Below the pieces are notes generated by a model, which saw only the letters and a list, made by a program, of their open reading frames with translations, searched no databases and was not told the DNA's origin. 64,000 nucleotides of DNA from an uncultured Gemmatimonadota bacterium. Its GTDB lineage: Bacteria > SM23-81 > DAOVCL01. Of the stretch, positions 1,146 through 32,395 are shown one piece after another. The stretch spans positions 141,914-205,913 of the forward strand of contig CAZVGK010000001.1 of the NCBI GenBank assembly GCA_964626665.1. The letters run 5' to 3'. Position 1 is the first letter of the stretch. Every line of letters begins with the position of its first letter. The position numbers and the translations under genes were made by a program.

Positions 1146-1205
1146 AAGTTTCATTTTTAATTCTTAATTGCTTTTTTCCGTGAGCTTCCGTGGTAAACTG
1201 TTAGC
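1146..1205. repeat. Repeat that is the inverted copy of 32247-32312
   Basis: Reverse complement matches 32247-32312 closely (estimated by eye at about 90 percent, one 6-nt indel). Confidence 0.7.
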
Positions 1206-1247
1206 CCTCAACAATGAAACCCAAATTTAGAAAGGAGGTGAAAAGAG

Positions 1248-1910
1248 ATGAGCAGCGAAATCATTGCTCCCCTTAGTTCCACAGGCGATCAAACCTCTTA
1301 CTTTACGGGGGGCGCGACCCTGGGGAAGGAGGATTTCCTCAAGCTCCTGATCATACAGCTTCAATATCAGGATCCCCTAAGCCCTATGGAGAACACGGAC
1401 TTTATGGCTCAACTTGCCCAATTCAGTAGCTTGGAACAGCTCCAGAATGTAAACTCCAATCTCCAGGCGAACTTTCTCCTCACCCAATCCCTGAACAACT
1501 CCTTGGCCACTAACCTGATCGGGAAGAGGGTCATTGCCCAGGGCAACCAGGTTTACTTAGCGGGAGATGAGGGGGAGGAGATAACCTTTGCCCTGGCCGC
1601 CGACGCTGGGGTCACCGTAGAGGTCTACGATGCCGCTGGAAACCTGGTGAAGACTCTCAAGGGTGGTGCCCTCTCCTCCGGGAGAAACCAAATCCACTGG
1701 GACGGTAAGGACAGTGATGGCAACCAACTTCCCCCTGGCAACTACACCTACAAGCTTACGGCTACCGACTCCGATGGGAATTCGGTGGATGTAACCACCT
1801 ATAGCACAGGGCTGATCGGTGGGGTCAGGTTCCAGGACGGCAATGCCGTTCTCATAATGGGAGACCAGGAAATTAACCTCTCCGATATAGTGGAGATTCT
1901 TACTCCATAG
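1248..1910 (+). CDS. flgD: Flagellar hook capping/assembly protein FlgD
   Basis: N-terminal motif FLKLLIIQLQYQDPLSPMENTDFMAQLAQFSSLEQL typical of FlgD; C-terminal Ig-like region; AGGAGG RBS before the ATG. Confidence 0.85.
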   Translation: MSSEIIAPLSSTGDQTSYFTGGATLGKEDFLKLLIIQLQYQDPLSPMENTDFMAQLAQFSSLEQLQNVNSNLQANFLLTQSLNNSLATNLIGKRVIAQGNQVYLAGDEGEEITFALAADAGVTVEVYDAAGNLVKTLKGGALSSGRNQIHWDGKDSDGNQLPPGNYTYKLTATDSDGNSVDVTTYSTGLIGGVRFQDGNAVLIMGDQEINLSDIVEILTP

Positions 1911-1926
1911 GGAAGGAGGTGATGAG

Positions 1927-2313
1927 ATGGTCGATATAATCCACGGTGCTCCAGTTAACCCTTTAACTTCTCCCCCTTCACAGGGGAGGAGGCCCCAGCT
2001 ACCCAACAATTCTCAAGCCTTTCGCCAGATCCTCAGCAAAAAGATAGAAGAAGGGAACTACAATTTGAGATTCTCCTCCCATGCAATGCAGAGGCTGGTG
2101 GCCCGGGGCATAAACTTAACCTCTTATGACCTGAATAGGGTTGACGGCGCTGTGGAGAGGGCAAAAGCAAAGGGGGCCAAGGACTCGCTGGTTCTTCTTG
2201 GCGATCTGGCCTTTTTAGTGAGTGTGGAAAACAGAACAGTTATCACCGCCCTGGTGGGCTCCTCCCTGAGGGAGAAGATCTTTACCCACATTGATAGTGC
2301 GGTGATAGCTTAA
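1927..2313 (+). CDS. Small flagellar operon protein of the kind often found between flgD and flgE (TIGR02530-like), function unknown
   Basis: Position between flgD and flgE, size 128 aa, GGAGG RBS; assignment is by synteny and my memory of the family, not by a motif. Confidence 0.4.
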   Translation: MVDIIHGAPVNPLTSPPSQGRRPQLPNNSQAFRQILSKKIEEGNYNLRFSSHAMQRLVARGINLTSYDLNRVDGAVERAKAKGAKDSLVLLGDLAFLVSVENRTVITALVGSSLREKIFTHIDSAVIA

Positions 2314-2392
2314 AACTGGGCTGGACCCCCATAGGGGAAGCCCAGGGTTGCCGAACGACGGAGGCAACCCAGGAAAAAGGGGGTAATTTAAG

Positions 2393-4438
2393 ATGATGCA
2401 GTCACTCTATGCCGGTGTATCCGGATTGAAAAACCATTTAACCAGGATGGATGTCATCGGCAACAACATAGCCAATGTGAACACCATTGGCTTCAAGTCG
2501 GGAAGGGTAACCTTCAAGGAGGCAATGTCCGCCCTCCTGCGGGGGGCTACCAGGCCCTCGTTGGAGAGGGGAGGGGTCAACCCGATGCAGATTGGCTTGG
2601 GGATGGCCATAGGCTCAATTGACAACATCTTCACCCAGGGGAGCTTAGAGACCACAGGCATTATCACCGATCTGGCCCTGCAGGGCGATGGTTTCTTTGT
2701 CCTCAGGGACGGGGAAAAGAGGTATTTTACCCGAGCCGGGGCCTTCCGGGTGGACTCCTTAGGGAGAATGGTTAGCCCTGATGGTCTGATAGTTCAAGGG
2801 AAGATGGCCGATGCCTTAGGGGTGATCGGGTCGGGAACCGCAGTGGGCGATATCACCCTACCCTTTGGCCAGAAGACGGCAGCAAAGGCCACATCGGAGA
2901 TAGGCTTCACCTGTAATCTGGATTCGAGGGAGAGCCCTTTGAGCTCCATCTTTGACTCCAAATCCCTCTTGGCTATTGAGGAGGGAAGCAACGATATGAG
3001 CGGCCTCTATGCCAATGGAAATGCTAACAGCGCACTCGCCCTCACCCCGGGCGATACGGTAACGGTGCAGATAGGCGCCACATCTGTAACCTATACCTAT
3101 GTGGAAACAGACTCCGGAGCCACGGCTGATGACTTTCACACCATCAATGACCTCATAGCCGAGGTGAACAATGATTTTTCCGGCACGATTACCGCAAGCA
3201 TAGACTTGGATGGAGCCATAAACTTCACCAATGGTTCAGGTGGGGATATCACCCTCACCATCACCAGCTCCAATGCCACCCTACAGAGTAGCTTGGGAGC
3301 AGAAGGGGGAGTAAGCATTGCCAATGGGGGGTCTCACCTAAGCGATCAGTTCTCCCATACCTCGATGGGAGGTGATCTCTTGGTTAACCTCAGGGATTCC
3401 GAGGGGAATGGTCTGGAGATTGTAGCCACTGATGTGATCAACATCAGCGGCTCCATCGGGGGAACAGGGATTGGAGCCAGCAGCTTCACCGCTACCTCAT
3501 CAAGTACCCTGACCGATCTGGCTACTGCTATCGAGACTGCTTTTGACACCTCTGCCGCCGCGGGAGGTAGTGACATAGCGGAGGTAACCATCGACAGTGA
3601 TGGTTCTATCAGGGTGGGAACTGTGGCTGGAGCTCCTTCTCAGGTAACATCGGTTACCGTGAACTGCAGTGGAAAACCTGTCTTCAACACGGCGATGACC
3701 TTTATGCAGACTCAGCAGCCCACCACCGTTTCCCACTCCACCTCCATAACTGCATATGACAGCCAGGGGGGAACTCATATAATCACCTTCACCTTCACCA
3801 AGGATGCTACCGCGGAAAACATATGGGACTGGACGGCCTCGGTAGAGGAGCCAGCCACGATGATCAGCGGCTATTCGGGGAAGGTGGAATTCAATACTGA
3901 CGGCTCCCTGAAGAGCTTTAGCTATGATACGGGGAGCAGCTTCAAGTTCGCCCCAGGGACCGGTGCGGATAGCCCGGTGGAGATTAGCCTCAACCCAGGT
4001 GAGATGGGGGGTTTCACTGGCGTCACCCAGTTTGCCTCCCCCTCTACCACCATTGCCTCCAGCCAGGATGGATATGGAATGGGAACCCTGGACTCCATAT
4101 CCATAGGTGAAGATGGGACGATCACCGGCTCCTTCACCAACGGCGTGCTCCGTACCTTGGCCCAGATCTCCCTGGCTTCCTTTAAAAATCCTGAGGGGTT
4201 GAAGAAAGCAGGGGACAGCCTCTACCAGGAGACCACCAACTCCGGACTTCCTCTGATTGGATCAGCAGGAACCACCGTCCACGCCACCATCTCCTCCGGG
4301 GCCTTAGAGATGTCCAATGTGGACCTGGCTCAGGAGTTCGTCAATATGATCGTCGCTCAGAGGGGATTCCAGGCTAACGCCAGGATCATTACCACCAGCG
4401 ATGATATGCTGCGAGAGCTGGTCAACCTGAAGAGGTAA
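2393..4438 (+). CDS. flgE: Flagellar hook protein FlgE (long form with central insertion domains)
   Basis: N-terminal rod/hook domain (SLYAGVSGLKNHLTRMDVIGNNIANVNTIGFK) and C-terminal domain (DLAQEFVNMIVAQRGFQANARIITTSDDMLRELVNL); Ser/Thr/Gly-rich middle. Confidence 0.9.
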   Translation: MMQSLYAGVSGLKNHLTRMDVIGNNIANVNTIGFKSGRVTFKEAMSALLRGATRPSLERGGVNPMQIGLGMAIGSIDNIFTQGSLETTGIITDLALQGDGFFVLRDGEKRYFTRAGAFRVDSLGRMVSPDGLIVQGKMADALGVIGSGTAVGDITLPFGQKTAAKATSEIGFTCNLDSRESPLSSIFDSKSLLAIEEGSNDMSGLYANGNANSALALTPGDTVTVQIGATSVTYTYVETDSGATADDFHTINDLIAEVNNDFSGTITASIDLDGAINFTNGSGGDITLTITSSNATLQSSLGAEGGVSIANGGSHLSDQFSHTSMGGDLLVNLRDSEGNGLEIVATDVINISGSIGGTGIGASSFTATSSSTLTDLATAIETAFDTSAAAGGSDIAEVTIDSDGSIRVGTVAGAPSQVTSVTVNCSGKPVFNTAMTFMQTQQPTTVSHSTSITAYDSQGGTHIITFTFTKDATAENIWDWTASVEEPATMISGYSGKVEFNTDGSLKSFSYDTGSSFKFAPGTGADSPVEISLNPGEMGGFTGVTQFASPSTTIASSQDGYGMGTLDSISIGEDGTITGSFTNGVLRTLAQISLASFKNPEGLKKAGDSLYQETTNSGLPLIGSAGTTVHATISSGALEMSNVDLAQEFVNMIVAQRGFQANARIITTSDDMLRELVNLKR

Positions 4439-4454
4439 TAGTTAAAATGAAAGA

Positions 4455-4479
4455 GGCGGCAGAACTGGGTTCTGCCGCC
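4455..4479. repeat. Perfect palindromic hairpin immediately after the flgE stop
   Basis: ggcggcagaac-tgg-gttctgccgcc; no strong U-run, so REP-like rather than a classic terminator. Confidence 0.6.
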
Positions 4480-4645
4480 ATCCTCTCTTCCCGTCAGGTG
4501 AGGGCACCTACCTGCTCAGGGGTTAATTCTCCCCCACTGGCGGGAGGGTAGCCGCACTTTTAGATTGCGAAAGGACGCAGACTGAAGTCTGCAGCTACCG
4601 GCGGGACAATATAGTAGCTGAGCGGTCAGGTCCCCTGATTTGACC

Positions 4646-4669
4646 GTGGCAGAACAAGGGTTCTGCCAC
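4646..4669. repeat. Second copy of the GGCAGAAC / GTTCTGCC hairpin
   Basis: gtggcagaac-aagg-gttctgccac followed by ctcgttccatttt (compare ttccatttt after the 1036-1090 hairpins). Confidence 0.6.
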
Positions 4670-4727
4670 CTCGTTCCATTTTGTGCCCCCAGCAGCAAAG
4701 TCAAGCTTCGCTAAACTGTGAGGAAGG

Positions 4728-6251
4728 ATGAAGTTATTTTACATCTCCACCTTTCTATCCCTTGTCCTCTTGGTCTCATCCTGTGCCAAGAAGCCGACCA
4801 AGGAAGAGAATCATCCACCGGTAATCAGCGAGCTTAAAGCCAGCAAATTAGCCGTGGATTTCCAAACGGATGTGACCATCACCGCCCAGGTTACCGATCA
4901 GGATGAGGATGAGCTCAGTGCAACCTGGAGGGCTAACTGGGGAAACTTTAAGGCTAGCTCCCAGGATTCGGCCATCTGGACATCGCCTTCTTCCCCAGCT
5001 ATCGCCACCCTGACATTGGTGGTTTCCGATGGAAAGGGGGGAGGGGACAGGGACAGTCTGCAGATAGGGGTGAGGGACAACCCACCCCAAATAACCGGCC
5101 TCATCGCCCGTTCTCCCAACCTCACCTTGGGGGGAGAGACGGTCATCCTTTGCACTGCTTCTGATCCCGATGGGGATACACTCAGCTATGCCTGGGAAGG
5201 GTCTGGAGGGGCCTTCTCGTGGCTCCAGGGCGACTCCTGCGGCTGGGTAGCCCCCTCCCAGGAGGGAATCTATCAAATCACAGTAAAGGTTGTAGATGGG
5301 AAAGGGGGAGAGGTGGGAGACAGCCTCAGTATGAAGGTATATAGGGAGTCTGGATGTTGCTGGGTCTCCGATACCTTTCACGATCAGGTGGTGAAGGTCT
5401 CTCCGCAGGGGATAGTGCTCTTTCGGGTGACAGGCTTCTCCCAGCCCTTTGGTATGGCCGTCAACCCCTTAGAGGAAGCCTGTTGGGTGGCGGATACCTA
5501 CAATAACAGGGTGGTAAAGCTGGATTCTCAGGGAGGAAATGAGGCCATTGTAACAGGATTTCAGGCTCCAAAGGCCCTGTCCTGTTTCTATATTGAAGGG
5601 GCCTGTTGGATAACCGATTCCGGAGGAGATCAGGTGGTGAAGGTCTCTTATGATGGGCAAGAGCTGCTTAGGGTGGGAGGATTCCATTCTCCCCAATCAG
5701 TGGCCGTTGATCAGGCAAACGGAGGCTGTTGGGTGGCTGACACTGGGGGGGATCGGGTCGTTTGGCTCTCCGCAACGGCGCCCGATGGAGCATTGGTGGA
5801 TAGCCTTCCCTCTACGGATGCGCTGATTGTAGGGGGGATGGGTAGTCCGATAGCGGTCTCCGTGAGCAGATTTGATGGCTCCTGCTGGGTAGCGGAGAAG
5901 GACTCCAATAGGGTAGCGAAGATCTCCTCCCAAGGGCAGGTATTGCTGCGCATTCAGGACTTGCAGGCCCCTCAATCGGTAAGCGTAAACTCCCGGGATG
6001 GATGTTGTTGGGTGGCAGATACGGGAGCCAACCGGGTAGTTAAGTTCTCCCCTTCCGGCGATCTCCTCTTAGAGGTGAAGGATCAATTCCACCAGCCATA
6101 CTCCGTAGCGGTGAACCCTACCGATGGTTCTTGTTGGGTGGCAGACACCTATGGCTATCGGGTGGTAAAACTGTCATCTCAAGGTGATCTCCTCTACGCG
6201 ATAGGGGGTTTTACCGCTCCCCGGGCCATCTCAGTGAACCCCGGCCAATGA
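4728..6251 (+). CDS. Predicted lipoprotein: two Ig/PKD-like domains followed by a seven-bladed NHL/YVTN-type beta-propeller; function unknown
   Basis: Signal peptide with lipobox (LLVSSC); seven tandem blades each starting CW[VI][AST]D...R or Q V[VA]K; embedded between flgE and flbD-motAB with host-like codon usage. Confidence 0.7.
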   Translation: MKLFYISTFLSLVLLVSSCAKKPTKEENHPPVISELKASKLAVDFQTDVTITAQVTDQDEDELSATWRANWGNFKASSQDSAIWTSPSSPAIATLTLVVSDGKGGGDRDSLQIGVRDNPPQITGLIARSPNLTLGGETVILCTASDPDGDTLSYAWEGSGGAFSWLQGDSCGWVAPSQEGIYQITVKVVDGKGGEVGDSLSMKVYRESGCCWVSDTFHDQVVKVSPQGIVLFRVTGFSQPFGMAVNPLEEACWVADTYNNRVVKLDSQGGNEAIVTGFQAPKALSCFYIEGACWITDSGGDQVVKVSYDGQELLRVGGFHSPQSVAVDQANGGCWVADTGGDRVVWLSATAPDGALVDSLPSTDALIVGGMGSPIAVSVSRFDGSCWVAEKDSNRVAKISSQGQVLLRIQDLQAPQSVSVNSRDGCCWVADTGANRVVKFSPSGDLLLEVKDQFHQPYSVAVNPTDGSCWVADTYGYRVVKLSSQGDLLYAIGGFTAPRAISVNPGQ

Positions 6252-6448
6252 TCCATCTTAGCAGACTGAATGGAAAACCTTTGGTGATCAATGCGGAGTT
6301 GATAGAGCTCATCGAGAGAACGCCAGATACCATTCTCACCCTGACTACAGGGAGAAAGATAATGGTCAAGGAAGATGTTGCCGAGGTAGTGGAAAAGGTG
6401 AAAGAATATCTGAGGGAAGTTAGAATATGGACATTACCACCTTCATAG
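6248..6448 (+). CDS. flbD: Flagellar protein FlbD
   Basis: 66 aa; MIHLSRLNGKPLVINAELIELIERTPDTILTLTTGRKIMVKEDVAEVVEKV matches the FlbD pattern; directly upstream of motA. Confidence 0.8.
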   Translation: MIHLSRLNGKPLVINAELIELIERTPDTILTLTTGRKIMVKEDVAEVVEKVKEYLREVRIWTLPPS

Positions 6449-7221
6449 GAATCATCAGCGGGGTCTTCGTTCTGGTAGTGGCCATCTTTATGGGTGGGGG
6501 ACTGGCTATCTTTATCAACATCCCCTCTTTGATGGTGGTGGTAGGTGGAACCTTTGCCGCCACCCTGATTAATTTTCCCCTGCCGGAGATGCTCAGGTTG
6601 ATCAAGGTGGTGAAAAACGCCTTCCTGCACAAGGTGATCTCCCCGGTGGAGACGATCAATAAATTGGTTCACTTTGCGGAGATAGCGCGGAAGAACGGTA
6701 TGTTGGCCCTGGACAAAGAGCTGAAGGATATCGAGGATGCTTTCTTAAGGGAGGGGATGCAGTTGGCTGTGGATGGGATGGATCCGGAGCTGATCAGAAA
6801 TGTCTTAGAGGTGGAGAAGGCCTTTTTAGAGGAGAGACATACGGTAGGTCAGGGGATCTGTAAGGCTATAGGCAAATATGCCCCCGCTTTTGGTATGATG
6901 GGGACCCTGATCGGACTTATCCAAATGTTGAGAAGCCTTGATGATCCCTCGAAGATAGGGCCGGGGATGGCCGTGGCCCTGATCACCACCTTCTATGGGG
7001 CGATGATAGCCAACCTCCTCTTCCTCCCCTTGGCGGGAAAGCTGGAGACTCTCTCCCAGCAGGAGATGCTGCTCAAGGATTTGGCCATAGAGGGGATACT
7101 CGCCATCCAGGCCGGGGATAGCCCGCGTATAGTTGAACAGAAGCTACGGGCCTTCCTGGCCCCCCATCTGCGGGCGGGGATAAAGAGAAGAAAAGCGGGG
7201 GGGGAGGAAAGTGGCAATTAA
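6427..7221 (+). CDS. motA: Flagellar motor stator protein MotA
   Basis: MotA/TolQ/ExbB-type membrane protein (YAPAFGMMGTLIGLIQML); followed by motB. Confidence 0.85.
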   Translation: MDITTFIGIISGVFVLVVAIFMGGGLAIFINIPSLMVVVGGTFAATLINFPLPEMLRLIKVVKNAFLHKVISPVETINKLVHFAEIARKNGMLALDKELKDIEDAFLREGMQLAVDGMDPELIRNVLEVEKAFLEERHTVGQGICKAIGKYAPAFGMMGTLIGLIQMLRSLDDPSKIGPGMAVALITTFYGAMIANLLFLPLAGKLETLSQQEMLLKDLAIEGILAIQAGDSPRIVEQKLRAFLAPHLRAGIKRRKAGGEESGN

Positions 7222-7963
7222 GAGAAAGAAGAAAAAGGCAGAGGAGGGAGCACCTGAATGGATGGTCACTTATGGGGATCTGATGACCCTGTTGATGACC
7301 TTCTTCGTTCTGCTCTTCTCCTTCTCCTCCATTCAGGAGTCAAAGTTTAGAAATGCCATTGGTTCCCTGAAGGGTGCTCTTGGCGTGCTGTTAAAGAACC
7401 CCAAGGCAATGAGCCAGATAAAATCTGATTCCCATTTTCTCCCGCAGAGGGAAAAACGATTGATGGAAGCACTGAAAAAGGTGAGAAATCTTTCCCAGGA
7501 GGGAAAGTTCAAAGGGCAGATAAAGCTGATCAAAACAAAGAAGGGATGGTTGATCAGTATTTCCAATCCGGTGATGTTCGATATTGGCAAGGCCGACATA
7601 AAGCTTGGGCTCTATCCGGTCTTGGATATGATTGCCGATGTGATCAGGGCCAAACCGATGGAGGTGCGAGTAGTGGGCCATACCTGCGATCTTCCCATTC
7701 ACACCAGCCAGTTCCCTTCCAACTGGGAGCTTTCGACCACCAGGGCGGTAAATGTGGTAAAATACTTGGAATCCAAGGGTATCCCGGGGGCCAAATTCTC
7801 GGCTGAGGGAAGGTCTAAATACTCCCCCATTGTCCCTAACGACTCGGAGGAGCACAGAAGGTTAAATCGGAGGGTGGAGATATACCTCGATTCTATCAAT
7901 CCCCCGGTGGTGCCAGTAGAATCGATTAACCCTGTCCCATGGTCAGGAAAGGAGAAAAGTTAA
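7211..7963 (+). CDS. motB: Flagellar motor stator protein MotB (OmpA-like C-terminal domain), GTG start
   Basis: N-terminal TM helix, plug region, OmpA-like domain (VGHTCDLPIHTSQFPSNWELSTTRAVNVVKYL...RRVEI); GTG start with G-rich RBS. Confidence 0.85.
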   Translation: MAIKRKKKKAEEGAPEWMVTYGDLMTLLMTFFVLLFSFSSIQESKFRNAIGSLKGALGVLLKNPKAMSQIKSDSHFLPQREKRLMEALKKVRNLSQEGKFKGQIKLIKTKKGWLISISNPVMFDIGKADIKLGLYPVLDMIADVIRAKPMEVRVVGHTCDLPIHTSQFPSNWELSTTRAVNVVKYLESKGIPGAKFSAEGRSKYSPIVPNDSEEHRRLNRRVEIYLDSINPPVVPVESINPVPWSGKEKS

Positions 7964-8550
7964 TGGCAACCAAAAAGACGGAAACTGAAAAAGAGAAGAA
8001 GGGAAACTCACCTGCCGAAGTTCCTGAGGCTAAGGTAAAAAAGGGGGGAGAGGGGGACCAGCCAAAGAAGGGATTTATTCCCGGCAGAATGAAGCTAATC
8101 GCCCTTCCCCTGATTGTGGCGATTATATCCTGGGTGGTCATTACCAAGGTTATCTCCCCAAAGCTACTGGCCCAGAAGAAGGATTTAGAGAAGAAGAAGA
8201 CAGAGCTGAAAGAGGAACCACCCAAGGAGAAGCCAAAGGACGACATGGTCGGCCAGATCTACACCATTGAAAACATTATAGTTAACCCGGCAGATTCTAA
8301 CGGGGAGAGGTTCGTTAAGACTTCCATAGCCTTGGAGATGGAGCAAGCCAAACTTGCCGAAGAGCTCACCAAGAGGGATGTTCAACTACGGGACATATTG
8401 ATAGGCATCTTCACCAGCAAGACGGTAGAGGAAATCACTAACCCCGCCAAGAGGGAAAGTCTCAGACAAGAAATCAAGGGAAAGATAAACTCCCTTCTGG
8501 TAGGTGAAAAAATAAAGAATGTCTATTTCACGGATCTGGTAATCCAATAG
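7963..8550 (+). CDS. fliL: Flagellar basal-body-associated protein FliL
   Basis: Single TM helix plus C-terminal FliL-type domain (IYTIENIIVNPADSNGERFVKTSIALEM); start moved to the internal ATG at 7963, which has an AGGAAAGGAG RBS. Confidence 0.8.
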   Translation: MATKKTETEKEKKGNSPAEVPEAKVKKGGEGDQPKKGFIPGRMKLIALPLIVAIISWVVITKVISPKLLAQKKDLEKKKTELKEEPPKEKPKDDMVGQIYTIENIIVNPADSNGERFVKTSIALEMEQAKLAEELTKRDVQLRDILIGIFTSKTVEEITNPAKRESLRQEIKGKINSLLVGEKIKNVYFTDLVIQ

Positions 8551-8564
8551 GTAACACTTACCAC

Positions 8565-8710
8565 GGAATGGACCTTCATCAATGATCAATTAACAATTAG
8601 CAATGGTCAATTAGCAAGTCTTAAAGAGGGAAAATCCTGAAGTGTCAATTTCCATTGATCATTGATTATTTCTGTGCCAGTCCGTGGCTATCGGTGGTGA
8701 ACAATTATTC
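8565..8710. repeat. Composite MITE-like intergenic repeat in the fliL-fliM spacer
   Basis: ccacggaa ... caattaacaattagcaatggtcaattagcaagtcttaaagagggaaaatcctgaagtgtcaatttccattgatcattg ... tttctgtgccagtccgtggctatcggtggtg. Confidence 0.7.
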
Positions 8711-8725
8711 CAATAGGAAGGAACA

Positions 8726-11754: not shown

Positions 11755-11765
11755 AAGGATAAGGG

Positions 11766-12825: not shown

Positions 12826-12920
12826 TTATACAATTATCAATTAGCAAGTTAAAATGAAATGAAGACCGAAGTGTCACTTTCCATTGATAATTGATAATTG
12901 ATCATGACCATTTCTTAGCG
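12826..12920. repeat. MITE-like intergenic repeat in the fliR-flhB spacer
   Basis: caattatcaattagcaagttaaaatgaa...gtgtcactttccattgataattgataattg...accatttcttagcggtgg; terminal inverted repeats caattatcaatt / aattgataattg. Confidence 0.7.
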
Positions 12921-12945
12921 GTGGACTTGAGCGCAAAGGAGAAAT

Positions 12946-19424: not shown

Positions 19425-20557
19425 TGATGAGAGCTGAGAAGCTGAGGGGCAAGCCCTTATTCTACATAGCAGAACGACCTGGTGAGGATCTCCTCGCGGG
19501 CCTAAGGCCGGGTGCGGTTCTCCGAGGGAGGGTAGTGAGGATACTTCCTCCTGATAAGGCCATAGTTAGAATAAGGGGGTTAAACCTTGTGGCCGAAAAC
19601 CACAGCGGGCTAAAGAAAGGGGATCGTTTTCGGGCCGGGGTGAAGAAGATGGGCCTCCCTTTGGCCTTGACCCTTTTGGAGGAGAATCCCCCTGATGAAA
19701 TCTCCTCCCGCCTAAAGGAAATCGGCATCCAGCCCACCCCTCTAAACAGGGCTTTGGCACAGGCCCTATTGGCCAACGATTTTCCCTTAAACAGAGAGGA
19801 AATGGAAAGTTTTCTTTCCTTATGGAAGAGCGTTTCTTCTGGGTTGGGGGAGGATTCAGTTAGGATAAAAACTGTCATCCTTTTCAAAAAGCTGCAAGCT
19901 GCACCTTCCCCTGAGATGCTTGAGGCCCTTAAGGGGGAGAAGCTTCTTATGGGGAAGAAGATAGATGAGGCCATCCGCTTTTTTCCTCAGCTTGGTGAGG
20001 CCCTAAGCCATCTTCCCGTCCTCCCTGGTGACCCCCAATTTCCCGCCAGGGTGCAGAAGCTTCCTCAGGAGGAGGATGATGTTATAAGAAAGGCTCTACC
20101 TTTGTTGCAGGTGTCCCCGGCGAAGGTTACCCCTCAATTGAAGGATTTCATCAGGGATGTGGGCTATATCAGGGATTTGCAGTTCCTATCTGATAGCTCA
20201 AAGGTTATGACCTATCGGCAGATTCCTATCCAAGAGGGGGATAGGGTGCAAACCCTGCAGTTAAAGATCGAGGGGAAAGGCCGCTCGGTGTGGTTAAGGC
20301 TTTTAGGGGAGATCAGGAAGGGAGGGCGGGTTGAGCTAGTGGTTCACTTAGATGGCCAGAGGGTCCTTTTAAAGGTCTGGGCGGAAAAGGAAAGAGCCGG
20401 TTCCCTCTTTGAGGGAAAATTGCGGGAATTAGAGGAAAAGATAAAAGGCCTGGGCCTTAAGCTGGCCACCCCCCTTATCTGGCAGCAGAAGATCTCCCTC
20501 TCCCCTCTTTCGTTTCTCATCTCCTCTGGGGAGGGGGCCGTAGATCTCAAAGGGTGA
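19421..20557 (+). CDS. Hypothetical protein (378 aa), possibly flagellum-associated by context
   Basis: ORF with start overlapping the previous stop; no motif recognised. Confidence 0.4.
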   Translation: MMMRAEKLRGKPLFYIAERPGEDLLAGLRPGAVLRGRVVRILPPDKAIVRIRGLNLVAENHSGLKKGDRFRAGVKKMGLPLALTLLEENPPDEISSRLKEIGIQPTPLNRALAQALLANDFPLNREEMESFLSLWKSVSSGLGEDSVRIKTVILFKKLQAAPSPEMLEALKGEKLLMGKKIDEAIRFFPQLGEALSHLPVLPGDPQFPARVQKLPQEEDDVIRKALPLLQVSPAKVTPQLKDFIRDVGYIRDLQFLSDSSKVMTYRQIPIQEGDRVQTLQLKIEGKGRSVWLRLLGEIRKGGRVELVVHLDGQRVLLKVWAEKERAGSLFEGKLRELEEKIKGLGLKLATPLIWQQKISLSPLSFLISSGEGAVDLKG

Positions 20558-20568
20558 GGGGAAATTTG

Positions 20569-20633
20569 CAATTATCAATTAACAATGAGCAATTAAGAAA
20601 TCCCCCCTATACAATGGAAAAAGAGCAGAAAGA
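20569..20633. repeat. Partial copy of the caattatcaat repeat upstream of the DUF342-like gene
   Basis: caattatcaattaacaatgagcaattaagaaa...acaatggaaaaag. Confidence 0.5.
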
Positions 20634-23671: not shown

Positions 23672-23681
23672 AATATTTAAA

Positions 23682-23711
23682 AAAATAAGGGCCTCGGCTC
23701 TGGGACCCTTA
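23682..23711 (-). terminator. Candidate intrinsic terminator hairpin downstream of the rplQ-containing transcript
   Basis: Perfect 8-bp stem (aataaggg / cccttatt) with 14-nt loop, followed by a T-run on the - strand; abuts the etfA start. Confidence 0.35.
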
Positions 23712-23847
23712 TTTTTCACCTTGTTACAGTTTACAGGGATCAGTAGTCATGCGGTTATCGGAGCCTAGTTATCAGTTGTCACAGATTTCCTCCGCTCCCC
23801 GTCAACTGCCCTCTGATCCCTTGGGGTTGATCCCCGGGACTGTTATT

Positions 23848-25555: not shown

Positions 25556-25575
25556 CTAAAGATACTTCCTCCTTC

Positions 25576-26205
25576 TCACTTAGAATAGAGCTCCACAATC
25601 AATTTTTCGGTGATCGGCTCAGGTATCTGCTCTCTGGTGGGGAGGTCTAGGACCTCACCCTCCAACTTGGCCTTGTCTATCCTCAGCCAGCTCAGCTTAC
25701 CAAGCCTATCTGCGGCCTTCAGAGAGTCATGGATTATGGCTAAATCCCGGCTCTTCTCCCTTACCTTTACCACATCCTTTGGCTTTACTTGGTAGGAGGG
25801 GATGTTCACCTTCCTCTCGTTCACCTGGAAGTGGCTATGCCTCACCAACTGCCTGGCTGTTTTTCGAGAGGGGGCAAAACCGAGCCGGTAGACGGTGTTG
25901 TCTAACCGGGATTCTAAGGCCCGCAGAAGGTTCTCCCCGGTGATACCCTTTTTCCTTTCAGCCTTTTGGAAGTAGTTTCTGAACTGTTTCTCCATTATTC
26001 CATAGATCCTCCGCACCTTCTGCTTCTCCCTTAATTGAAGGCCGTACTCAGACATCCGGCGACGGCGGAGGACCCCATGTTGTCCGGGAAATGATTCCTT
26101 TTTCTCCAGGGCACACTTATCCGTGTAACACCGATCGCCCTTCAGAAAGAGTTTGGTCTTCTCCCGGCGACAGAGCTTGCAAACGGGGCCCTTGTATCTA
26201 GCCAT
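25576..26205 (-). CDS. rpsD: 30S ribosomal protein S4
   Basis: [31 protein letters not shown]. Confidence 0.95.
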
Positions 26206-26208
26206 CTC

Positions 26209-26604
26209 TTATACCCTCCTTCGCTTGGGAGGACGACAACCATTATGAGGAATGGGAGTAACATCCCTTATCGCTGTAATATTCAACCCGGCAGCCTGCA
26301 GGGATCTGATGGCGGCCTCCCTCCCGGATCCTGGCCCCTTCACTCTGACCTCCAAACTCTTCATCCCTCTATCCATTGCCCCTTTAGCAGAGGCCGTAGC
26401 CGCCTGCCCGGCCGCAAATGGGGTGCTCTTCTTAGAACCTTTAAAACCCGCCCTCCCCGCCGAGGCCCAGGATATAACCTTCCCTTGGGTATCGGTAATG
26501 GTTATTATCGTGTTGTTAAAGGTTGCCTGAATGTGAGCCACCCCTGATACCTCCACCCTCCCCTTTTTTCTTTTGGGCCTTCCTTTCGCTTTCTTATCTG
26601 CCAA
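26209..26604 (-). CDS. rpsK: 30S ribosomal protein S11
   Basis: [18 protein letters not shown]...[18 protein letters not shown]. Confidence 0.95.
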
Positions 26605-26620
26605 TTTTCACACCCCCTGA

Positions 26621-26992
26621 TTACCTTTTCCTTTTGGCTCCAATAGTTTTGCGGGAGCTCCTTCTCGTGCGGGAATTGGTTTTCGTCCTCTGGCCCCTCA
26701 CCGGAAGGTTCCTCCTGTGTCTAAATCCGCGATAAGAGCCGATTTCCATCAACCTCTTTATATTCATAGTCACCTCTGCTCTCCTGCTCCCTTCCACCTT
26801 GTAATCCGACTCTATAACCGACCTCAGCTTGGAGACTTCCTCCTCGCTGAGCTTGTTCACTCTAGTATCAGGAGAGACCCCGGTTTTCTTCAATATTTTA
26901 CTTGCAGAGGAGCGGCCTATACCATAAATATAAGTAAGGGCAATCTCTATCCTCTTGTCCTTTGGCAAATCAACGCCTGCTATCCTGGCCAA
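26621..26992 (-). CDS. rpsM: 30S ribosomal protein S13
   Basis: [26 protein letters not shown]. Confidence 0.95.
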
Positions 26993-27007
26993 CCTTAAAC
27001 CTCCTTT

Positions 27008-27142
27008 TTAACCTACCCTTCTGGGCTTACCCCTTTGTCTCTGTTTGTGACGGGGGTTTGAGCAGATGACCCGGAGGACCCCCTTCCTTCTAATTACCTT
27101 ACAGTGTTTGCAGAGGGGTTTTATGGAAACTTTGACTTTCAT
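27008..27142 (-). CDS. rpmJ: 50S ribosomal protein L36 (44 aa, below the ORF-track size cutoff)
   Basis: Hand translation of the - strand gives [44 protein letters not shown] with the C-x2-C...C-x4-H zinc ribbon; lies between infA and rpsM. Confidence 0.85.
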
Positions 27143-27357
27143 TTGTACCTGTAGGTTATCCTTCCTCGATTTAGGTCATAGGGGGAGAGTTCCACAGCCA
27201 CCCTATCTCCTGGGAGTATCTTGATATAATGCATCCTCATCTTCCCGGAGATGTGGGCTAAAACCCGGTGGCCATTTTTTAACTCCACCCTGAAAGTGGC
27301 ATTGGGAAGGGGCTCAATCACTACCCCGTCAACCTTTATCGTCTCCTGTTTAGCCAT
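27139..27357 (-). CDS. infA: Translation initiation factor IF-1
   Basis: [53 protein letters not shown]; start set at MAKQE. Confidence 0.9.
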
Positions 27358-28003
27358 CCCTGGCCTCAAGCTTTTCCGTTATTTCCTCAAAGACCGCCGT
27401 GGCATCTCCATCTCCCTCTACATCTATTAAGATCCCCTGAGCTCGGTAATACTCCTGCAACTCCTTTATCTCCTTAGCATAGATGGAGAGCCTTTTCTTG
27501 ATGGTTTGCGGGCGATCGTCTTCCCTTTGATAGAGCTCCCCCCCGCAGCGATCACAGATACCATCCGATTTTGGAGGGGCGGTGATTAAGTTATAGACGG
27601 CTCCACAGGATGAACAGACCCTCCGATTGGAGAGCCGACGCAGGATAACCTCCTGAGAAACCTCTATATCAATGACCCCAGTGAGAGTCCAATCCATATC
27701 CCTGCCTATTGCCTCTAACCCTTCGGCCTGGGCCAGGTCGCGGGGAAAACCATCTAAGATGAACCCTTCTGTACAGTCTTCTCCATGGAGTCTTAGCTTG
27801 ACCAACTCCATCATAATCTCATCAGGGACAAGTTCTCCCTTATCCCAAAACCTCTTGGCTTTCTTCCCCCAAGAAGAACCATCCCTCACAGCAGACCTCA
27901 ATATCTCCCCCGTAGAGATGTGGGGTATTCCATATTCCTGGCTGAGCATCTCTGCCTCAACGCCTTTCCCTGCCCCGGGTGGTCCCAAGATTACCAATCT
28001 CAT
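27350..28003 (-). CDS. adk: Adenylate kinase (zinc-lid type)
   Basis: P-loop GPPGAGKG; lid CSSCG...CDRCG. Confidence 0.9.
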
Positions 28004-29310
28004 CTCCTCCCCTTTATCTTCCCCTTCTTCATAAATCCATCATAATGCCTCATTACCAGATGAGACTCCACCTGTTTTAGGGTATCTAAGGCCACCCCCA
28101 CGATGATCAGAACGGAGGTTCCTCCAAAGAAGAAGGAGACATCCATTGACTGCATTAGAAAAAAGGGTAGGATGGCAATCGCGGCAAAGGAGAGGGCCCC
28201 AGGGAGGGTGATGCGGGTGAGTATTCTGTCTATGTAGTCTGCCGTCCTCTTCCCTGGCCGCACACCAGGGATGAAACCGCCATACCTCTTCATATTGTCT
28301 GCCAATTCCACCGGATTGAAGACGATGGCCGTGTAGAAGTAAGCGAAGAATACTATCAAGAGGGCATAGACGATGGAGTAAACAGCAGCACCAGGTGTAA
28401 ACCAGTTAGCAATTCCAGTTAATAACTCGCTCTTAGGGAAAAAAGTGGTGATGGTGCGGGGGGCAAACATCAGGGACTGGGCGAAGATGATGGGAATTAT
28501 CCCCGCGGCGTTCATATTAAGGGGGATGTGAGTGGACTGTCCACCATAGATCTTTCTCCCCACCACCCTTTTGGCATACTGCACCGGTATCCTCCTCTGT
28601 GCCTGGGTAATGATAACAACAAAGCTTATAACGGCCACCATAATGGCCAGGACCATCAACCCCTGAAAGGGAGAACGGGTGCCAGCGGCTAACTGCCTGC
28701 CTTCGTTGAGCACCGATCCCGGAAGCCTGGCTAATATCCCCACATAGATGATTAACGAGATCCCATTGCCAATCCCCTTCTCGGTCATCTGTTCCCCAAT
28801 CCACATAAGAAAGATGGTCCCTGTGGTCAGGGTAAGCATAGTCAAAAGTCTAAAACCAATCCCCGGGTGAACTACCGCAGAGATCCCCTCTGAGGTGACG
28901 ATGCTCTCCAAAAATATGCTCGCCCCATAGGATTGAAGGATACAGATGAGGATGGTGCCATACCTGGTGTACTGGGTTATCTTTCTCCTGCCCTCCTCCC
29001 CCTCTTTGTGCAGCTTCTGAAAGTAGGGGACGACAGCCCCTAAGAGTTGCATAATGATGGAGGAGGTGATGTAGGGCATTATCCCCAGGCCAAAGATGGC
29101 AGCGTTCTTAAAGGCTCCCCCAGCAAATATGTCGTAGAGGCCAAAGAGAGTTCCCTGAGCCTGGGCAAAGAAGCTTTTTAAAACCCCCATATCTATACCC
29201 GGAGTGGGAACATGGCAGCCAATTCGGTAAACAACAAGGAGGCCAATGGTAAAGAGAATCCTTTTCCTTAATTCGGGGATTTTGAATGTGTTTTGAAATG
29301 TCTGAAACAT
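28000..29310 (-). CDS. secY: Preprotein translocase subunit SecY
   Basis: 436 aa polytopic membrane protein in the canonical position after rplO. Confidence 0.9.
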   Translation of the reverse strand: MFQTFQNTFKIPELRKRILFTIGLLVVYRIGCHVPTPGIDMGVLKSFFAQAQGTLFGLYDIFAGGAFKNAAIFGLGIMPYITSSIIMQLLGAVVPYFQKLHKEGEEGRRKITQYTRYGTILICILQSYGASIFLESIVTSEGISAVVHPGIGFRLLTMLTLTTGTIFLMWIGEQMTEKGIGNGISLIIYVGILARLPGSVLNEGRQLAAGTRSPFQGLMVLAIMVAVISFVVIITQAQRRIPVQYAKRVVGRKIYGGQSTHIPLNMNAAGIIPIIFAQSLMFAPRTITTFFPKSELLTGIANWFTPGAAVYSIVYALLIVFFAYFYTAIVFNPVELADNMKRYGGFIPGVRPGKRTADYIDRILTRITLPGALSFAAIAILPFFLMQSMDVSFFFGGTSVLIIVGVALDTLKQVESHLVMRHYDGFMKKGKIKGRR

Positions 29311-29311
29311 C

Positions 29312-29770
29312 TCAGATTACCTCCGTGGTTCCCCCACTTGCCTCTATCTTTTCCTTGGCCGATCTACTGAATGCCTGAGCCCGGATGATCAGGGCTCCTT
29401 CCACCTGACCTTCGCCTAAAACCTTTAAGGGGATGGCTGTCCTCTTGATCAAACCATCTTTCTTTAAAAGGATTGGATCAATGACCTGGGAATCGGCATA
29501 TCTGCTCAGTTGCTTGAGGTTAACCACCTGATAGCGGACCGGGAAATGGTGCATCATAACAGATTTCTTCCCCCTCTTCATTCCCCTTTTAGGTACCCTT
29601 CTCTCCAGAGGCATCTGTCCCCCCTCAAACCAGGCCTTTGACTTGGAGCCGGATCTGGATCTTTGCCCTTTCTCCCCCCGACCGCTGGTTTTCCCCAGGC
29701 CTGAGCCAGGTCCCCTACCCACCCTTTTTCTCCTCTTCTTTGCCCCTGATGGCGGTCTAATCTGCATCAT
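29312..29770 (-). CDS. rplO: 50S ribosomal protein L15
   Basis: [22 protein letters not shown]. Confidence 0.9.
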
Positions 29771-29966
29771 TACAAAACTCCTCGACGGCTACCAAATGGC
29801 TTACCTTCCTCAGCATCCCCCTTATTTGCGGGGTATCCAGATGGGTCACTGTGTGATTTAACCTTTTAATCCCCAAAGCCTTAATGGTTAATTTCTGTCT
29901 GAGTGGATACCCGATCGCACTCTTTCTCTGAGTTATCTTCAATTTTTTGGCCATCCAATCTCCCAA
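29757..29966 (-). CDS. rpmD: 50S ribosomal protein L30
   Basis: [33 protein letters not shown]. Confidence 0.85.
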
Positions 29967-29999
29967 GAAAAAAATGACGGTTCACCACTGATTACTGAT

Positions 30000-30150
30000 C
30001 CCTGTTTTTCTGTGCATAGTCCGTGGTTATCTGTGGTAAATTATTACTCAATTAACGATTAGCAAGTTAAAATGAAGCCAGAAAATCCTGAGATGCGGGC
30101 CATTTTCCATTGATAATTGTTCATTGACCATTTCTTGGTCTGTCCGTGGT
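30000..30150. repeat. Composite AT-rich intergenic repeat (MITE-like) in the rpsE-rpmD spacer
   Basis: Contains ctgtttttctgtgcatagtccgtggttatctgtggt, then caattaacgattagcaagttaaaatgaa...gaaaatcctga...ttccattgataattg...accatttcttgg...tccgtggtg; related copies at 8565-8710 and 12826-12920. Confidence 0.7.
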
Positions 30151-30155
30151 GAGAA

Positions 30156-30662
30156 TTACGAAAAAAGCTCCTGCAGGGTTATCCCCCTCAGATTGGCCAC
30201 CATCTTGCCATCCCTGAGCCGCAAAAGGCCATTCATCGTGGCCTTAACCACATTATGGGGGTTAGAGGAGCCCAAGGATTTGGTAAGCACATTCTCCACT
30301 CCAGCCACCTCTAATACCGCCCTCACCGGCCCTCCGGCTATAACCCCTGTCCCTGGGGTCGCCGGCTTCATCAGCACTCTGCCTGCTCCAAACCTGCCTA
30401 AGATGGCATGGGGGATGGTTCCCCGGACAAGGGGGATCCTGATCATAGTCTTCCGGGCTGCCTCTGTGGCCTTTTTGATGGCCGCGGCAACCTCTTTGGC
30501 TTTGCCCAACCCTACTCCCACACTTCCCTGCCCATCGCCCACCGCCACCAACGCATTGAAACCAAACCTTCTCCCTCCTTTAACCACCTTGGCCACCCGA
30601 TTTAAGTAGATGAGCTTCTCCTCAAGTTCAATGCCCTCTTCCTCTTCCCTTTTGCCCTTCAA
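30156..30662 (-). CDS. rpsE: 30S ribosomal protein S5
   Basis: [35 protein letters not shown]. Confidence 0.95.
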
Positions 30663-30676
30663 ATTTTTCTCCCTTT

Positions 30677-31057
30677 CTAAAATCTTAATCCCCCTTCCCT
30701 GGCTCCCTCAGCGAGGGCCTTTACCCTTCCATGGTATTTATAGCCCCCGCGGTCGAAGACCACCTTCTCCACCCCTTTCTCCTTTAATTGCCCCGCTAAA
30801 ACCTGACCTAATAGCTTGGCCTTGGCTACCTTACCAGCCAAACCCTTGGCCTGTGGCGAGAGGGTGGGGGAGATGGTGGAGAGGAAGAGTATGGTTTTCT
30901 GAGCTTGGTCGTCGATGATCTGGGCATAGATCTGGCGTAGGCTCCGGTGGACGCTCAATCTGGGGCGCTCGGGGGTGCCCCAGACCCTCTTCCTTACCCT
31001 TCTCTTTCTCCTCTTCCAGGAGAGGATCTTTTTCCTGCTCTTGTCCGTGATTCCCAT
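30677..31057 (-). CDS. rplR: 50S ribosomal protein L18
   Basis: [20 protein letters not shown]. Confidence 0.9.
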
Positions 31058-31062
31058 AATCC

Positions 31063-31626
31063 TTAAGCTGCTGTTTTTCCGGCTTTCCGCCGTACCTTTT
31101 CCCCTTTGTATCTAATTCCCTTGCCTTTATAGGGGTCAGGTGGTTGAAATGATCTGAGCTTGGCAGCGATTTGACCCACCAGCTCCTTGTCAATGCCTTT
31201 AACGGTAATCGTCTCCACCACATCCTCCCGCCCCGCCCTAGCCATTAGCTGTACCTCAAGGTTTATCCCCTCAGGAGGTTCAAAGAGAATGGGGTGACAG
31301 TAACCCAACTGGAAGTTGAGCTTGCGGCCGATGAGATCGGCTTTGTAACCAACCCCGATAATCTGTAAGACTTTTTCAAACCCCCGGGATACGCCCTCCA
31401 CCATATTGGCCACCAGGGTTCTGGTCAGGCCATGAAGGGAGCGGTAAAACTTGGTATCAGAAGTACATCGGATGTGGAGCTTCCCCTCCTTCTCCTCCAC
31501 CTGGAGTCCTGCATGGATGCTCCTCTTCAGGATTCCCAGAGGGCCCTTTACCTTTAATATGTCCCCTTTTATCTCTACCTCCACCCCCTGCGGAAGGGGG
31601 ATGGGAGCTTTACCGACCCGCGACAA
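31063..31626 (-). CDS. rplF: 50S ribosomal protein L6
   Basis: [31 protein letters not shown]. Confidence 0.95.
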
Positions 31627-31635
31627 TCTTCCCTC

Positions 31636-32034
31636 CTACCATATATAACAGAGAACCTCCCCCCCAACTTCCTCTTTTCTGCAGAGTTTGTCCTGCAAAA
31701 TTCCCTTAGAGGTGGAAAGGATTGCTGTTCCCAAGCCATTTTGTACCCGGGGGACCTTATCCCTTCTTACATAGATCCTTAACCCCGGTTTGCTTATTCT
31801 CTTGAGGCCAGATATTACCGGGAGACCGTCAGGGGTATACCTCAGATAGATCCGCAACTTCCCCCGCCCCTCTTCCTCTAATTTCTTATAGTCAGCTATG
31901 TACTTCTCCTCCAAGAGAATCTGGGTTAGCTTCTCCTTAATTCTCGATGAGGGAAGTTCCACCGTGGCCAATCTGGCCTGGAGGCCATTTCTGATTCTGG
32001 TCAGCATATCTGCTATGGGATCTGTCATAGTCAT
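31636..32034 (-). CDS. rpsH: 30S ribosomal protein S8
   Basis: DPIADMLTRIRNG. Confidence 0.95.
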   Translation of the reverse strand: MTMTDPIADMLTRIRNGLQARLATVELPSSRIKEKLTQILLEEKYIADYKKLEEEGRGKLRIYLRYTPDGLPVISGLKRISKPGLRIYVRRDKVPRVQNGLGTAILSTSKGILQDKLCRKEEVGGEVLCYIW

Positions 32035-32046
32035 CGGCTTATCCCT

Positions 32047-32232
32047 TTACCAACTTGCCTTGGCCACGCCAGGGATTTCCCCGCGCAGGGCCAACTCCCG
32101 GAAGCATATTCTGCAGAGCCCAAATTTCCTCATATAGGCCCGGGAACGGCCGCAACGGGGACATCTGTTGTACTTTCTCACCTTGAACTTGGGTTCTCTC
32201 TTCGCTTTTACCTTTAAGGACTTCTTGGCCAA
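32047..32232 (-). CDS. rpsN: 30S ribosomal protein S14, zinc-binding type Z (61 aa)
   Basis: [20 protein letters not shown] zinc ribbon; position between rplE and rpsH. Confidence 0.9.
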
Positions 32233-32246
32233 TCCTTCTCCTTTCG

Positions 32247-32395
32247 TAACAGTTTACCACGGAATCTCACGGAAAAAAGCAATTAAGAATTGAAAATTAA
32301 AAATGAAACTTATGCTGGCCCCTCCTGATCTCTGAAGACTGATCTCTGTTTTTCTGTGCTAGTCCGTGGTCATCCGTGGTGAAATATTCTCTCCT
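32247..32395. repeat. Intergenic repeat block in the rplE-rpsZ spacer
   Basis: 32247-32312 is the near-exact reverse complement of 1146-1205; 32345-32390 matches the ctgtttttctgtgc-tagtccgtggt block at 30000-30043. Confidence 0.7.

Follow-up and report, generated by a model that had tools for sequence, protein, structure and literature searches.

A dispersed repeat at flagellar and ribosomal gene junctions

The 64,000-nucleotide stretch analyzed here (the window; positions 141,914 to 205,913 of contig CAZVGK010000001.1, from an assembly of an uncultured Gemmatimonadota bacterium) carries a flagellar operon on the forward strand and the divergent spc ribosomal protein operon on the reverse strand. 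Two nearly identical segments lie in spacers of these operons. The first (1146-1205) is found between fliK (59-943, + strand) and flgD (1248-1910, + strand; Pfam FlgD), and the second (32247-32312) between rplE (32398-32988, - strand) and rpsZ (32044-32229, - strand; TTG start, Ribosomal_S14 match), a gene context that the initial annotation had given correctly. Because the two operons are divergent, both segments are oriented alike relative to the gene that follows, and each stops 17-43 nt ahead of its start codon. The two segments are very probably copies of an unnamed family of small non-autonomous transposons (MITEs, for miniature inverted-repeat transposable elements) that occupies several gene junctions.

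Pairwise alignment of the reverse complement of 1146-1205 with 32247-32312 revealed 57 identical bases among 58 aligned, with GAGCTT against GAGATT as the sole mismatch, and thus upheld the near base-for-base match that had been estimated by eye. The indel between the segments is 7 nt long (AATTTTC), rather than 6 nt as first reported, and corresponds to one unit of the heptamer repeat described below. Beyond the match, a weaker likeness (GGCACAGGAAAG vs GGCCAGCATAAG) continues for another ~10 nt. A repeat search of the window scored the pair as a 55-nt inverted repeat of 95% identity, and the longest exact inverted match in the window measures 26 nt, whereas 20 sequences simulated from the window with a first-order Markov model gave 15-19 nt. 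A second, related block had been proposed at 30000-30043 and 32345-32390, and it is real as well: on the + strand in both places, 30017-30045 is 86% identical to 32360-32388 and 29986-30014 is 86% identical to 32330-32358, giving ~86% identity overall between 29986-30045 and 32330-32388 in direct orientation. The exact 14-mer CTGTTTTTCTGTGC occurs in the window at positions 30002 and 32346 only, and TCCGTGGT was observed 10 times against an expectation of 1.04.

The elements combine two end types with a heptamer core

Reading every window spacer longer than 60 nt, together with the repeat search, revealed that each pair corresponds to one of two unlike ends of a single MITE-like family, of which the 64 kb holds six or more copies or remnants, all of them intergenic. 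Full copies (8552-8708, 29975-30159 and 32246-32389; copies B, E and F) have inverted ends GTAAnnnTTnACCACGGA followed by CACGGA units phased at 10 bp. Full elements are 140-190 bp in size (B, E and F measure 144-185 nt), and no open reading frame (ORF) of at least 80 aa was listed inside them. Their terminal inverted repeats are imperfect; they start with (G)TAAnnnTTnACCACGGA and continue with one or two more CACGGA/CACAGA units at 10-bp spacing, such that the ends of B, E and F read ACCACGGA...TCCGTGGT with (G)TAA termini. The ends pair with each other in centroid folds of the elements.

The outer modules are built from the 10-bp-phased units, either as TTTCTGTGCC-AGTCCGTGGC-TATCGGTGGT-GAA or as TTTTCCGTGAG-ATTCCGTGGT-AAA, and aligning the ends splits them into two types. 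Type 1 (TTGCTTTTTTCCGTGAGATTCCGTGGTRAACTGTTAC; the first pair) has the layout TTTTCCGTGAG-ATTCCGTGGTRAAC, and type 2 (CTGTTTTTCTGTGCTAGTCCGTGGTNATCNGTGGTGAA; the second pair) has the layout CTGTTTTTCTGTGC-TAGTCCGTGGT-ATC-GTGGTGAA. Each of the full elements B, E and F carries a different end type at each side, in inverted orientation. The core of most copies consists of A+T-rich tandem repeats of the heptamer CAATTAn that are able to form an inner hairpin; copy F has just one heptamer arm, around a middle that contains no repeats. The spacers that bear elements are A+T-rich (35-43% G+C).

Copy F (32246-32389, - strand) is a full 144-nt element between rplE and rpsZ, whose type-1 end (32246-32312) faces rpsZ and whose type-2 end (32345-32389) abuts the rplE stop codon. 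Copy A (1138-1205, + strand) is a one-ended fragment composed of an internal AATTnTT heptamer arm and a type-1 end, TTTTTTCCGTGAGCTTCCGTGGTAAACTGTTA, that faces flgD; it is the counterpart of the type-1 end of copy F, to which the 57 of 58 identities and the heptamer indel refer. The same fliK-flgD spacer holds a CAATnAn heptamer-repeat arm (965-1003, + strand), a core fragment of another family member; against the heptamer arms found at 8623-8673, 12870-12905 and 30103-30137 it shows 81-86% complementarity. Copy B (8552-8708, + strand) is a full 157-nt element between fliL and fliM, with left end TAACACTTACCACGGAAT, a heptamer hairpin core and type-2 end TTTCTGTGCCAGTCCGTGGCTATCGGTGGTGAACAATTAT. 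Copy E (29975-30159, - strand) is a 185-nt composite between rpsE and rpmD, in which a ~70-nt mini-element (29975-30045, including the type-2 end at 30000-30045) abuts a heptamer-hairpin element (30046-30159). Copy C (12826-12925, + strand), between fliR and flhB, retains a heptamer hairpin core with degenerate ends, and copy D (20549-20600, + strand) is a remnant with a single heptamer arm. Further remnants are an A/F-type heptamer arm, TCATTCTTAATTCAAAATTCTTAATTGCC, against the rplW stop codon (43124-43155, + strand; 32 nt, 84% complementary to 32275-32306) and a possible, weak degenerate type-2 end, TTTCTGTTTTTCTCTGA (36870-36899, + strand; 76%, 2 mismatches). Together, copies of the family explain the majority of the unusually long, A+T-rich spacers in two operon sets that are in other respects very compact and conserved.

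Flanking duplications rebuild the gene junctions

Direct repeats of 8-9 bp flank the full copies. Copy B is abutted on both sides by TCCAATAGG (8543-8551 and 8709-8717; 9/9 identical), a repeat that includes the stop codon of fliL and lies ahead of the ribosome-binding site of fliM. Copy F lies between two identical copies (9/9) of TCTCCTTTC (32237-32245 and 32390-32398). Read in the direction of the genes, this repeat is GAAAGGAGA, a duplicated rpsZ ribosome-binding site. Copy E is flanked by GAAAAAAA (29967-29974) and GAAAAAAG (30160-30167), which match at 7 of 8 positions. Furthermore, the GTAA terminus of copy E supplies the rpsE stop codon TAA (30156-30158), as does the corresponding terminus in the relative L019 (6215-6217), and without the insertion the rpsE frame would continue into the rpmD start. 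Between them, the duplicated target and the GTAA terminus restore stop codon and ribosome-binding site at the junction, which keeps the operons intact. Transposon insertions have thus been tolerated between rplE and rpsZ, between rpsE and rpmD, and between flagellar genes, and have persisted through speciation. For copy A, the candidate duplication GCCCTAAC / GCCCTCAAC was ruled out, as it is absent in the relative L201.

We infer from these footprints that a transposase acting in trans would insert the elements through a staggered 8-9-bp cut, generating the target-site duplications, and that the surviving copies would be those that landed precisely on a gene junction, so that stop codon and ribosome-binding site were restored. 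The 10-bp-spaced CACGGA/CACAGA units would be the sites bound by this transposase. Heptamer units would be gained and lost through slippage, which would explain the 7-nt indel between copies A and F; consistent with this, the number of heptamer units varies between orthologs (1 or 2).

Filled and empty sites in relatives date the insertions

Comparison with related genomes revealed both filled and empty sites at rplE-rpsZ and at fliK-flgD. The rplE-rpsZ spacer is 168 nt long in the window and 172 nt in L121 (RplE 91% identical), where an ortholog of copy F occupies the same place with the same length, and it is 11 nt long in L122 (RplE 77%); a junction of 12-40 nt is typical of nearly all other relatives recovered. 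Removing copy F and one copy of its duplication in silico leaves a 12-nt junction, like the 11 nt of L122. The fliK-flgD spacer measures 304 nt in the window and ~275-297 nt in L201 and L228, and is 47-75 nt long and free of the module in L226, L203 and L204. Orthologs of copy A were found at the same site in L201 (FlgD 81%) and in L227 and L228 (77%); in L202 and L229 they lie right where the contigs begin. FlgD identity in these relatives ranges over 76-81%. An ortholog of copy E is present in L019 (labeled Candidatus Zixiibacteriota; RpsE 90%), where the nested 45-nt type-2 piece is missing. Finally, all four relatives examined at fliL-fliM, including L201, L203 and L204, carry an element there with variable and partly nested inner content. 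Nested or mosaic copies are thus seen both in copy E relative to its L019 ortholog and in the L201 element at fliL-fliM.

Because orthologous copies occupy the same sites in sister species, insertions A and F predate the species splits. Judged from this orthology, copies A and F are old, and their near-identity reflects unusually slow divergence or homogenization rather than fresh copying. The initial annotation had read the pair as a mark of recent repeat spread: the segments do belong to a dispersed repeat family, but recency of the spread is not supported for these copies.

The inverted pair and the question of a 31-kb inversion

The pair had also been put forward as a substrate for inversion. 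If the two segments were a recently duplicated inverted pair, they could act as an active substrate for inversion of the intervening 31 kb, and their inverted orientation, their 57/58 identity and the dispersal of the family are what such a reading would predict. We consider it very unlikely. Both copies have orthologs in sister species, and their longest exact identity is 26 nt; about 26 nt of uninterrupted identity is near the minimum for RecA-dependent exchange in Escherichia coli. All 24 contigs read that encode an identical FlgD have the same gene neighbors, and three of them (L001-L003), from different samples, are base-identical to the window over positions 1-4910. No inverted arrangement was seen among these 24 contigs, although short-read contigs break at repeats and rare variants could escape. 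Moreover, exchange between copies A and F would put rpsZ-rpsH and the genes that follow behind fliK, and flgD-flgE and the genes that follow behind rplE, fusing distal spc genes to the flagellar operon and vice versa. What looked like a rearrangement hotspot is explained as a MITE family.

The same family accounts for assembly breaks. Logan short-read contigs end inside the modules (L205 corresponds exactly to window positions 32285-30103, L003 starts at 1150, and L202 and L229 behave alike), which argues that the modules are multi-copy in the genome. Elements of this kind fragment assemblies of the window species and of related species. That the repeats break short-read assemblies here could be taken to mean that misassembly or chimerism created the repeated segments themselves, an explanation to which we give practically no weight: independent assemblies of different samples contain the identical sequence, and the assemblies of other species contain orthologous copies.

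Element copies are conserved above synonymous sites

Orthologous element copies are 79-97% identical, compared with 52-75% identity at fourfold-degenerate sites of the flanking genes. Between the window and L121, copy F aligns with 124 matches and 20 mismatches (86%), divided into 54/59 for the type-1 module, 40/47 for the type-2 end and 30/38 for the middle, and fourfold-site identity in rplE, rplX and rpsZ is 0.63-0.68. Copy A is identical at 56 of 58 positions to its ortholog in L201 (flgD and flgE fourfold sites 0.70-0.73) and at 53 of 58 in L228 (~0.70). For a module of the length of copy A, the probability of at least 57 identities among 59 given p = 0.72 is ~1e-6. Copies also resemble each other across both site and species, with 63 of 66 positions identical between copy F of the window and copy A of L201. 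The rest of the fliK-flgD spacer is conserved equally well, so the copy A module is not uniquely constrained. This pattern fits two explanations, namely purifying selection acting on the sequence and homogenization through gene conversion in a large family that itself has a constrained consensus.

This conservation is one of several observations that weigh against a MITE origin, as divergence slower than at synonymous sites is unexpected for decaying selfish DNA. Copy A has one end only and no convincing target duplication. Many MITEs are reported to form very stable hairpins, and the RNA folds of F and E gain nothing over those of shuffled sequences (z = -0.2 and +0.4). The window, 117 genome loci and 19 viral loci, which make a small search space, yielded no transposase whose ends match, and a plasmid BLAST returned no match. 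Lastly, mobility is read from footprints only.

The same conservation raises the possibility that the elements, or at least the type-1 end module, were co-opted as a cis-element within the operons, for example a site at which mRNA is processed or stabilized, or an internal start; purifying selection would then hold the copies alike. Such co-option would be compatible with a MITE origin, and we regard it as possible although doubtful. In its favor are the excess of ortholog identity (86-97%) over fourfold sites (52-75%; P ~1e-6 for copy A) and the likeness of GTGGTAAACT to an extended -10 box; however, the -11 position differs among orthologs (GGTAAAC vs GGTGAAC), and consensus scans detected neither a sigma-70-type promoter nor an intrinsic terminator signal inside the elements. 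In A, F, B, E and their orthologs one end faces the next ribosome-binding site at a distance of 10-45 nt, yet any element with two ends trivially has one of them toward the downstream gene. The lack of folding beyond shuffled sequence in F and E, the equal conservation of the remaining fliK-flgD spacer, and the fact that gene conversion in a large family could yield the same pattern all count against co-option as well. If the conservation does reflect function, the copies would be examples of MITE domestication inside core operons.

RNA, operator and REPIN readings

A structured RNA was rejected on three grounds: the elements have no Rfam match, they can lie either way round with respect to genes, and in F and E folding does not exceed that of shuffled sequences. 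At the Rfam gathering threshold, the sole hit in the whole window is a tRNA (63529-63602), with none in the elements, and a search of 29900-32450 at a permissive E-value returned chance-level hits only. The fold of copy B gains modestly over shuffles (z = -1.5), and the z-score of -3.5 for the whole fliK-flgD spacer is due to unrelated hairpins at 1036-1096. Two protein-binding signals were likewise set aside: in TGGTAAACTGTTAC, which was rejected by eye as a sigma-54 promoter, the spacing deviates by one and there is no GC at -12, and in TTATCCGTG, read as a DnaA box, the last three bases differ from TTATCCACA.

The arrays might instead serve as operators through which a DNA-binding regulator, such as a winged-helix response regulator, controls flagellar and ribosomal genes, given that the TCCGTG units are strictly phased at 10 bp and lie upstream of genes. 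We hold this to be extremely improbable. The arrays occur on both strands relative to genes and also face 3' ends (the left end of B and the type-2 ends of E and F), they come with insertion footprints, they stand beside unrelated genes in many phyla, and they are missing from the same junctions in relatives.

Like repetitive extragenic palindromic (REP) sequences, bacterial interspersed mosaic elements (BIMEs) and REP doublets forming hairpins (REPINs), the window elements are small, palindromic, intergenic and mosaic units that persist at operon junctions. They could accordingly be palindromes of the REP/REPIN type, spread by a single-copy REP-associated tyrosine transposase (RAYT; IS200/IS605-like) instead of a DDE enzyme of the cut-and-paste or copy-paste kind, as befits short units without a linked transposase, and near-perfect 70-nt hairpins in Rhodanobacteraceae loci do look REPIN-like. 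We nevertheless find this origin highly improbable for the window family. REPs depend on a RAYT and lack target-site duplications, and the single-strand Y1 mechanism does not make the 8-9-bp duplications seen at B, F, E and the Desulfobacterota copies described below. In addition, the elements have no GTAG-type REP head, their two ends are unlike each other, and their core consists of A+T-rich heptamers rather than a G+C-rich stem; the spacers are A+T-rich, and a RAYT was not seen.

Candidate sources of a transposase

With a MITE family as the preferred reading, a transposase encoded elsewhere would be expected to share its ends. Clustering the ORFs on the inner side of 136 ends yielded neither a transposase candidate nor a recurrent protein, and clustering all ORFs of at least 250 aa in the 117 loci yielded no transposase candidate. 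A search for long-range inverted partners gave no candidate, the lone 4-kb pair (L051) flanking pyrG and other housekeeping genes.

The termini themselves offer a candidate lead. Insertion sequences (IS) of the IS66 family have terminal inverted repeats that begin GTAAGCG and make 8-bp direct repeats (PMC11946415), and ISDge4, of the ISBst12 group, has ends GTAACTGCTCAGCA and an 8-bp repeat (PMC12898284). GTAA starts are found in the window elements (GTAACAGTTT in F, GTAATTCTCA in E and, if the G is counted, GTAACACTT in B) and in Desulfobacterota copies (GTAATAGTT / GTAAAAGTT), and the copy F end GTAACAGTTTACCA matches the ISDge4 end at 10 of 14 positions. Some element ends read ATAA or AGAA rather than GTAA. 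The window copies fit an 8- or a 9-bp duplication equally, and the Desulfobacterota copies fit 8 bp abutting GTAA...TTAC. Unlike those of classical IS66, the ends of the window elements are not GTAAGCG, and no IS66-type transposase adjoins any copy in the loci examined. GTAA termini and 8-bp duplications could point to a parent of the IS66/ISBst12 type, a lead that we do not extend to a claim of family membership.

Related ends occur in many phyla

Scanning one genome per species with TCCGTGNNNWTCNGTGGTRAA returned at least 117 stretches; as ~280 chance matches are estimated in the 596 Gb covered, this count by itself says little. Context is more telling: of the 135 matches listed, 100 come with a third in-phase unit, with an inverted counterpart no more than 250 nt away, or with both, compared with 0-2 at control positions. 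Hosts of the decamer pattern among these listed matches span Verrucomicrobiota, Planctomycetota, Acidobacteriota, Nitrospirota, Nitrospinota, Desulfobacterota, Bacteroidota, Cloacimonadota, Calditrichia, WOR-3, Kiritimatiellaeota, Chloroflexota, Cyanobacteria, Firmicutes and Alpha-, Beta- and Gammaproteobacteria. The terminus of the window type, GTGGTRAAnnnTTAC, in pairs of ~130-230 nt, accounts for 18 hits in 14 of the listed loci (13 in the same register), from Desulfobacterota, Planctomycetota, Nitrospirota and Nitrospinota. Three Desulfobacterota loci (L073, L065 and L056) have GTAA...TTAC ends with 8-bp flanking repeats that match at 7 of 8 positions, and a fourth (L102) does so approximately. 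On the likeness of their termini, the matches of this subset are assigned to the same family as the window elements, and the remaining decamer matches form a looser group of decamer-phased hairpins, which may or may not be transposons. The end type is thus found in several phyla without a known transposase, and the looser group in many more.

A broader reading would make the decamer end module TCCGTG-N4-TCCGTGGTRAA the mark of a superfamily spread over more than 15 phyla with an unrecognized transposase, whose junction copies in the Zixibacteria clade were domesticated as cis-elements and held by selection. The identity cited for it is 91-98% across species and between paralogous sites, against ~65-72% at synonymous sites. 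We think this combined scenario unlikely.

One further layout was observed among these loci. In the deltaproteobacterial assembly L051 (2659-6760), two decamer-repeat elements of ~120 nt each, inverted relative to one another, enclose a 4-kb segment that contains an apparently frameshifted pyrG and an unknown gene, a composite-transposon-like arrangement without a transposase.

Comparison with described elements

Searching the literature with the element sequence strings returned primers only, and a keyword search by phylum was uninformative. As summarized in two reviews, Chunjie, a MITE of Geobacter uraniireducens Rf4 (Chen et al. 2008), is 178-235 bp long, A+T-rich and non-coding, with inverted ends of 21 bp and direct repeats of 9 bp; full and partial copies are numerous in intergenic regions, and it is noted for having entered an operon that stayed intact (PMC3184786, PMC10969869). 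The heptamer core and decamer-phased ends of the window elements are not described for Chunjie in those reviews (PMC3184786, PMC10969869). In the general features compared, Chunjie is the closest described analog, and its host is a deltaproteobacterium, a group in which the window end type is also common. In contrast to the window elements, which do not beat shuffles, Chunjie forms hairpins of very high stability (~-98 to -130 kcal/mol).

Short tandemly repeated repetitive (STRR) sequences of cyanobacteria are tandem 7-nt repeats in non-coding DNA whose length changes by 7-nt steps. The window heptamer CAATTAn differs from them, forms the core of a MITE and belongs to a flagellated Zixibacteria-like host. 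Correia elements (Correia repeat enclosed elements, CREE) duplicate TA, whereas the window elements duplicate 8-9 bp, have no sequence similarity to them and live in hosts of different phyla. Found in Neisseria, Correia elements are inverted-repeat elements of ~100-150 bp with no known transposase and hundreds of copies; they frequently sit between genes that are transcribed together and may include regulatory sites as well as targets of RNase III (PMC10969869). Being co-transcribed themselves, they serve as a functional analog of the window elements. Filled and empty sites among close relatives have been described for Nezha, a cyanobacterial MITE (PMC3184786).

Other features of the window

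The 289-nt spacer at 4439-4727, between flgE and an NHL-repeat gene, is built of hairpins (GGCGGCAGAAC..GTTCTGCCGCC, CCGTCAGGTGAGGGCACCT.., GCAGACTGAAGTCTGC, GTGGCAGAAC..GTTCTGCCAC), has no Rfam match and may represent a second repeat family or a structured RNA. By eye, it is strongly conserved in L227 and L228. A two-hairpin module of this spacer recurs at 1036-1096 in the fliK-flgD spacer, where it is the source of the z-score of -3.5.

The S10 ribosomal protein operon is interrupted by four genes (37026-42703 and 45042-48353), one pair separating rplW from rplB and the other separating rpsJ from tuf. Three of them, a 1481-aa C25 peptidase and proteins of 404 and 630 aa, have C-terminal domains of the FlgD_ig or type IX secretion sorting type, and the fourth (466 aa) has a sub-threshold PQQ_2 match alone. 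At 46-48 kb, G+C content is down to 0.43. The 404-aa gene is bracketed by a 53-nt direct repeat (41489-41541 and 42708-42760; 91%), perhaps the leftover 3' end of a neighboring paralog. Two similar stretches with ~10-nt phasing, 36980-37012 (GTAGATTCGTTTATTCGTGTCATTTGTG) and 42908-42935 (GTAGATTCTTTTATCCGCGTCACCTGTC), occupy spacers on either side of the inserted secretion-tail genes and may be degenerate relatives of the decamer ends. Finally, a 249-nt direct repeat of 95% identity joins 48447-48695 with 63752-64000, the second copy running off the window end. Its first copy covers the 3' end of a 401-aa ORF (48450-49655), presumed to be tuf from its position beside a fusA-like ORF, and the repeat may thus be a duplicated tuf gene.

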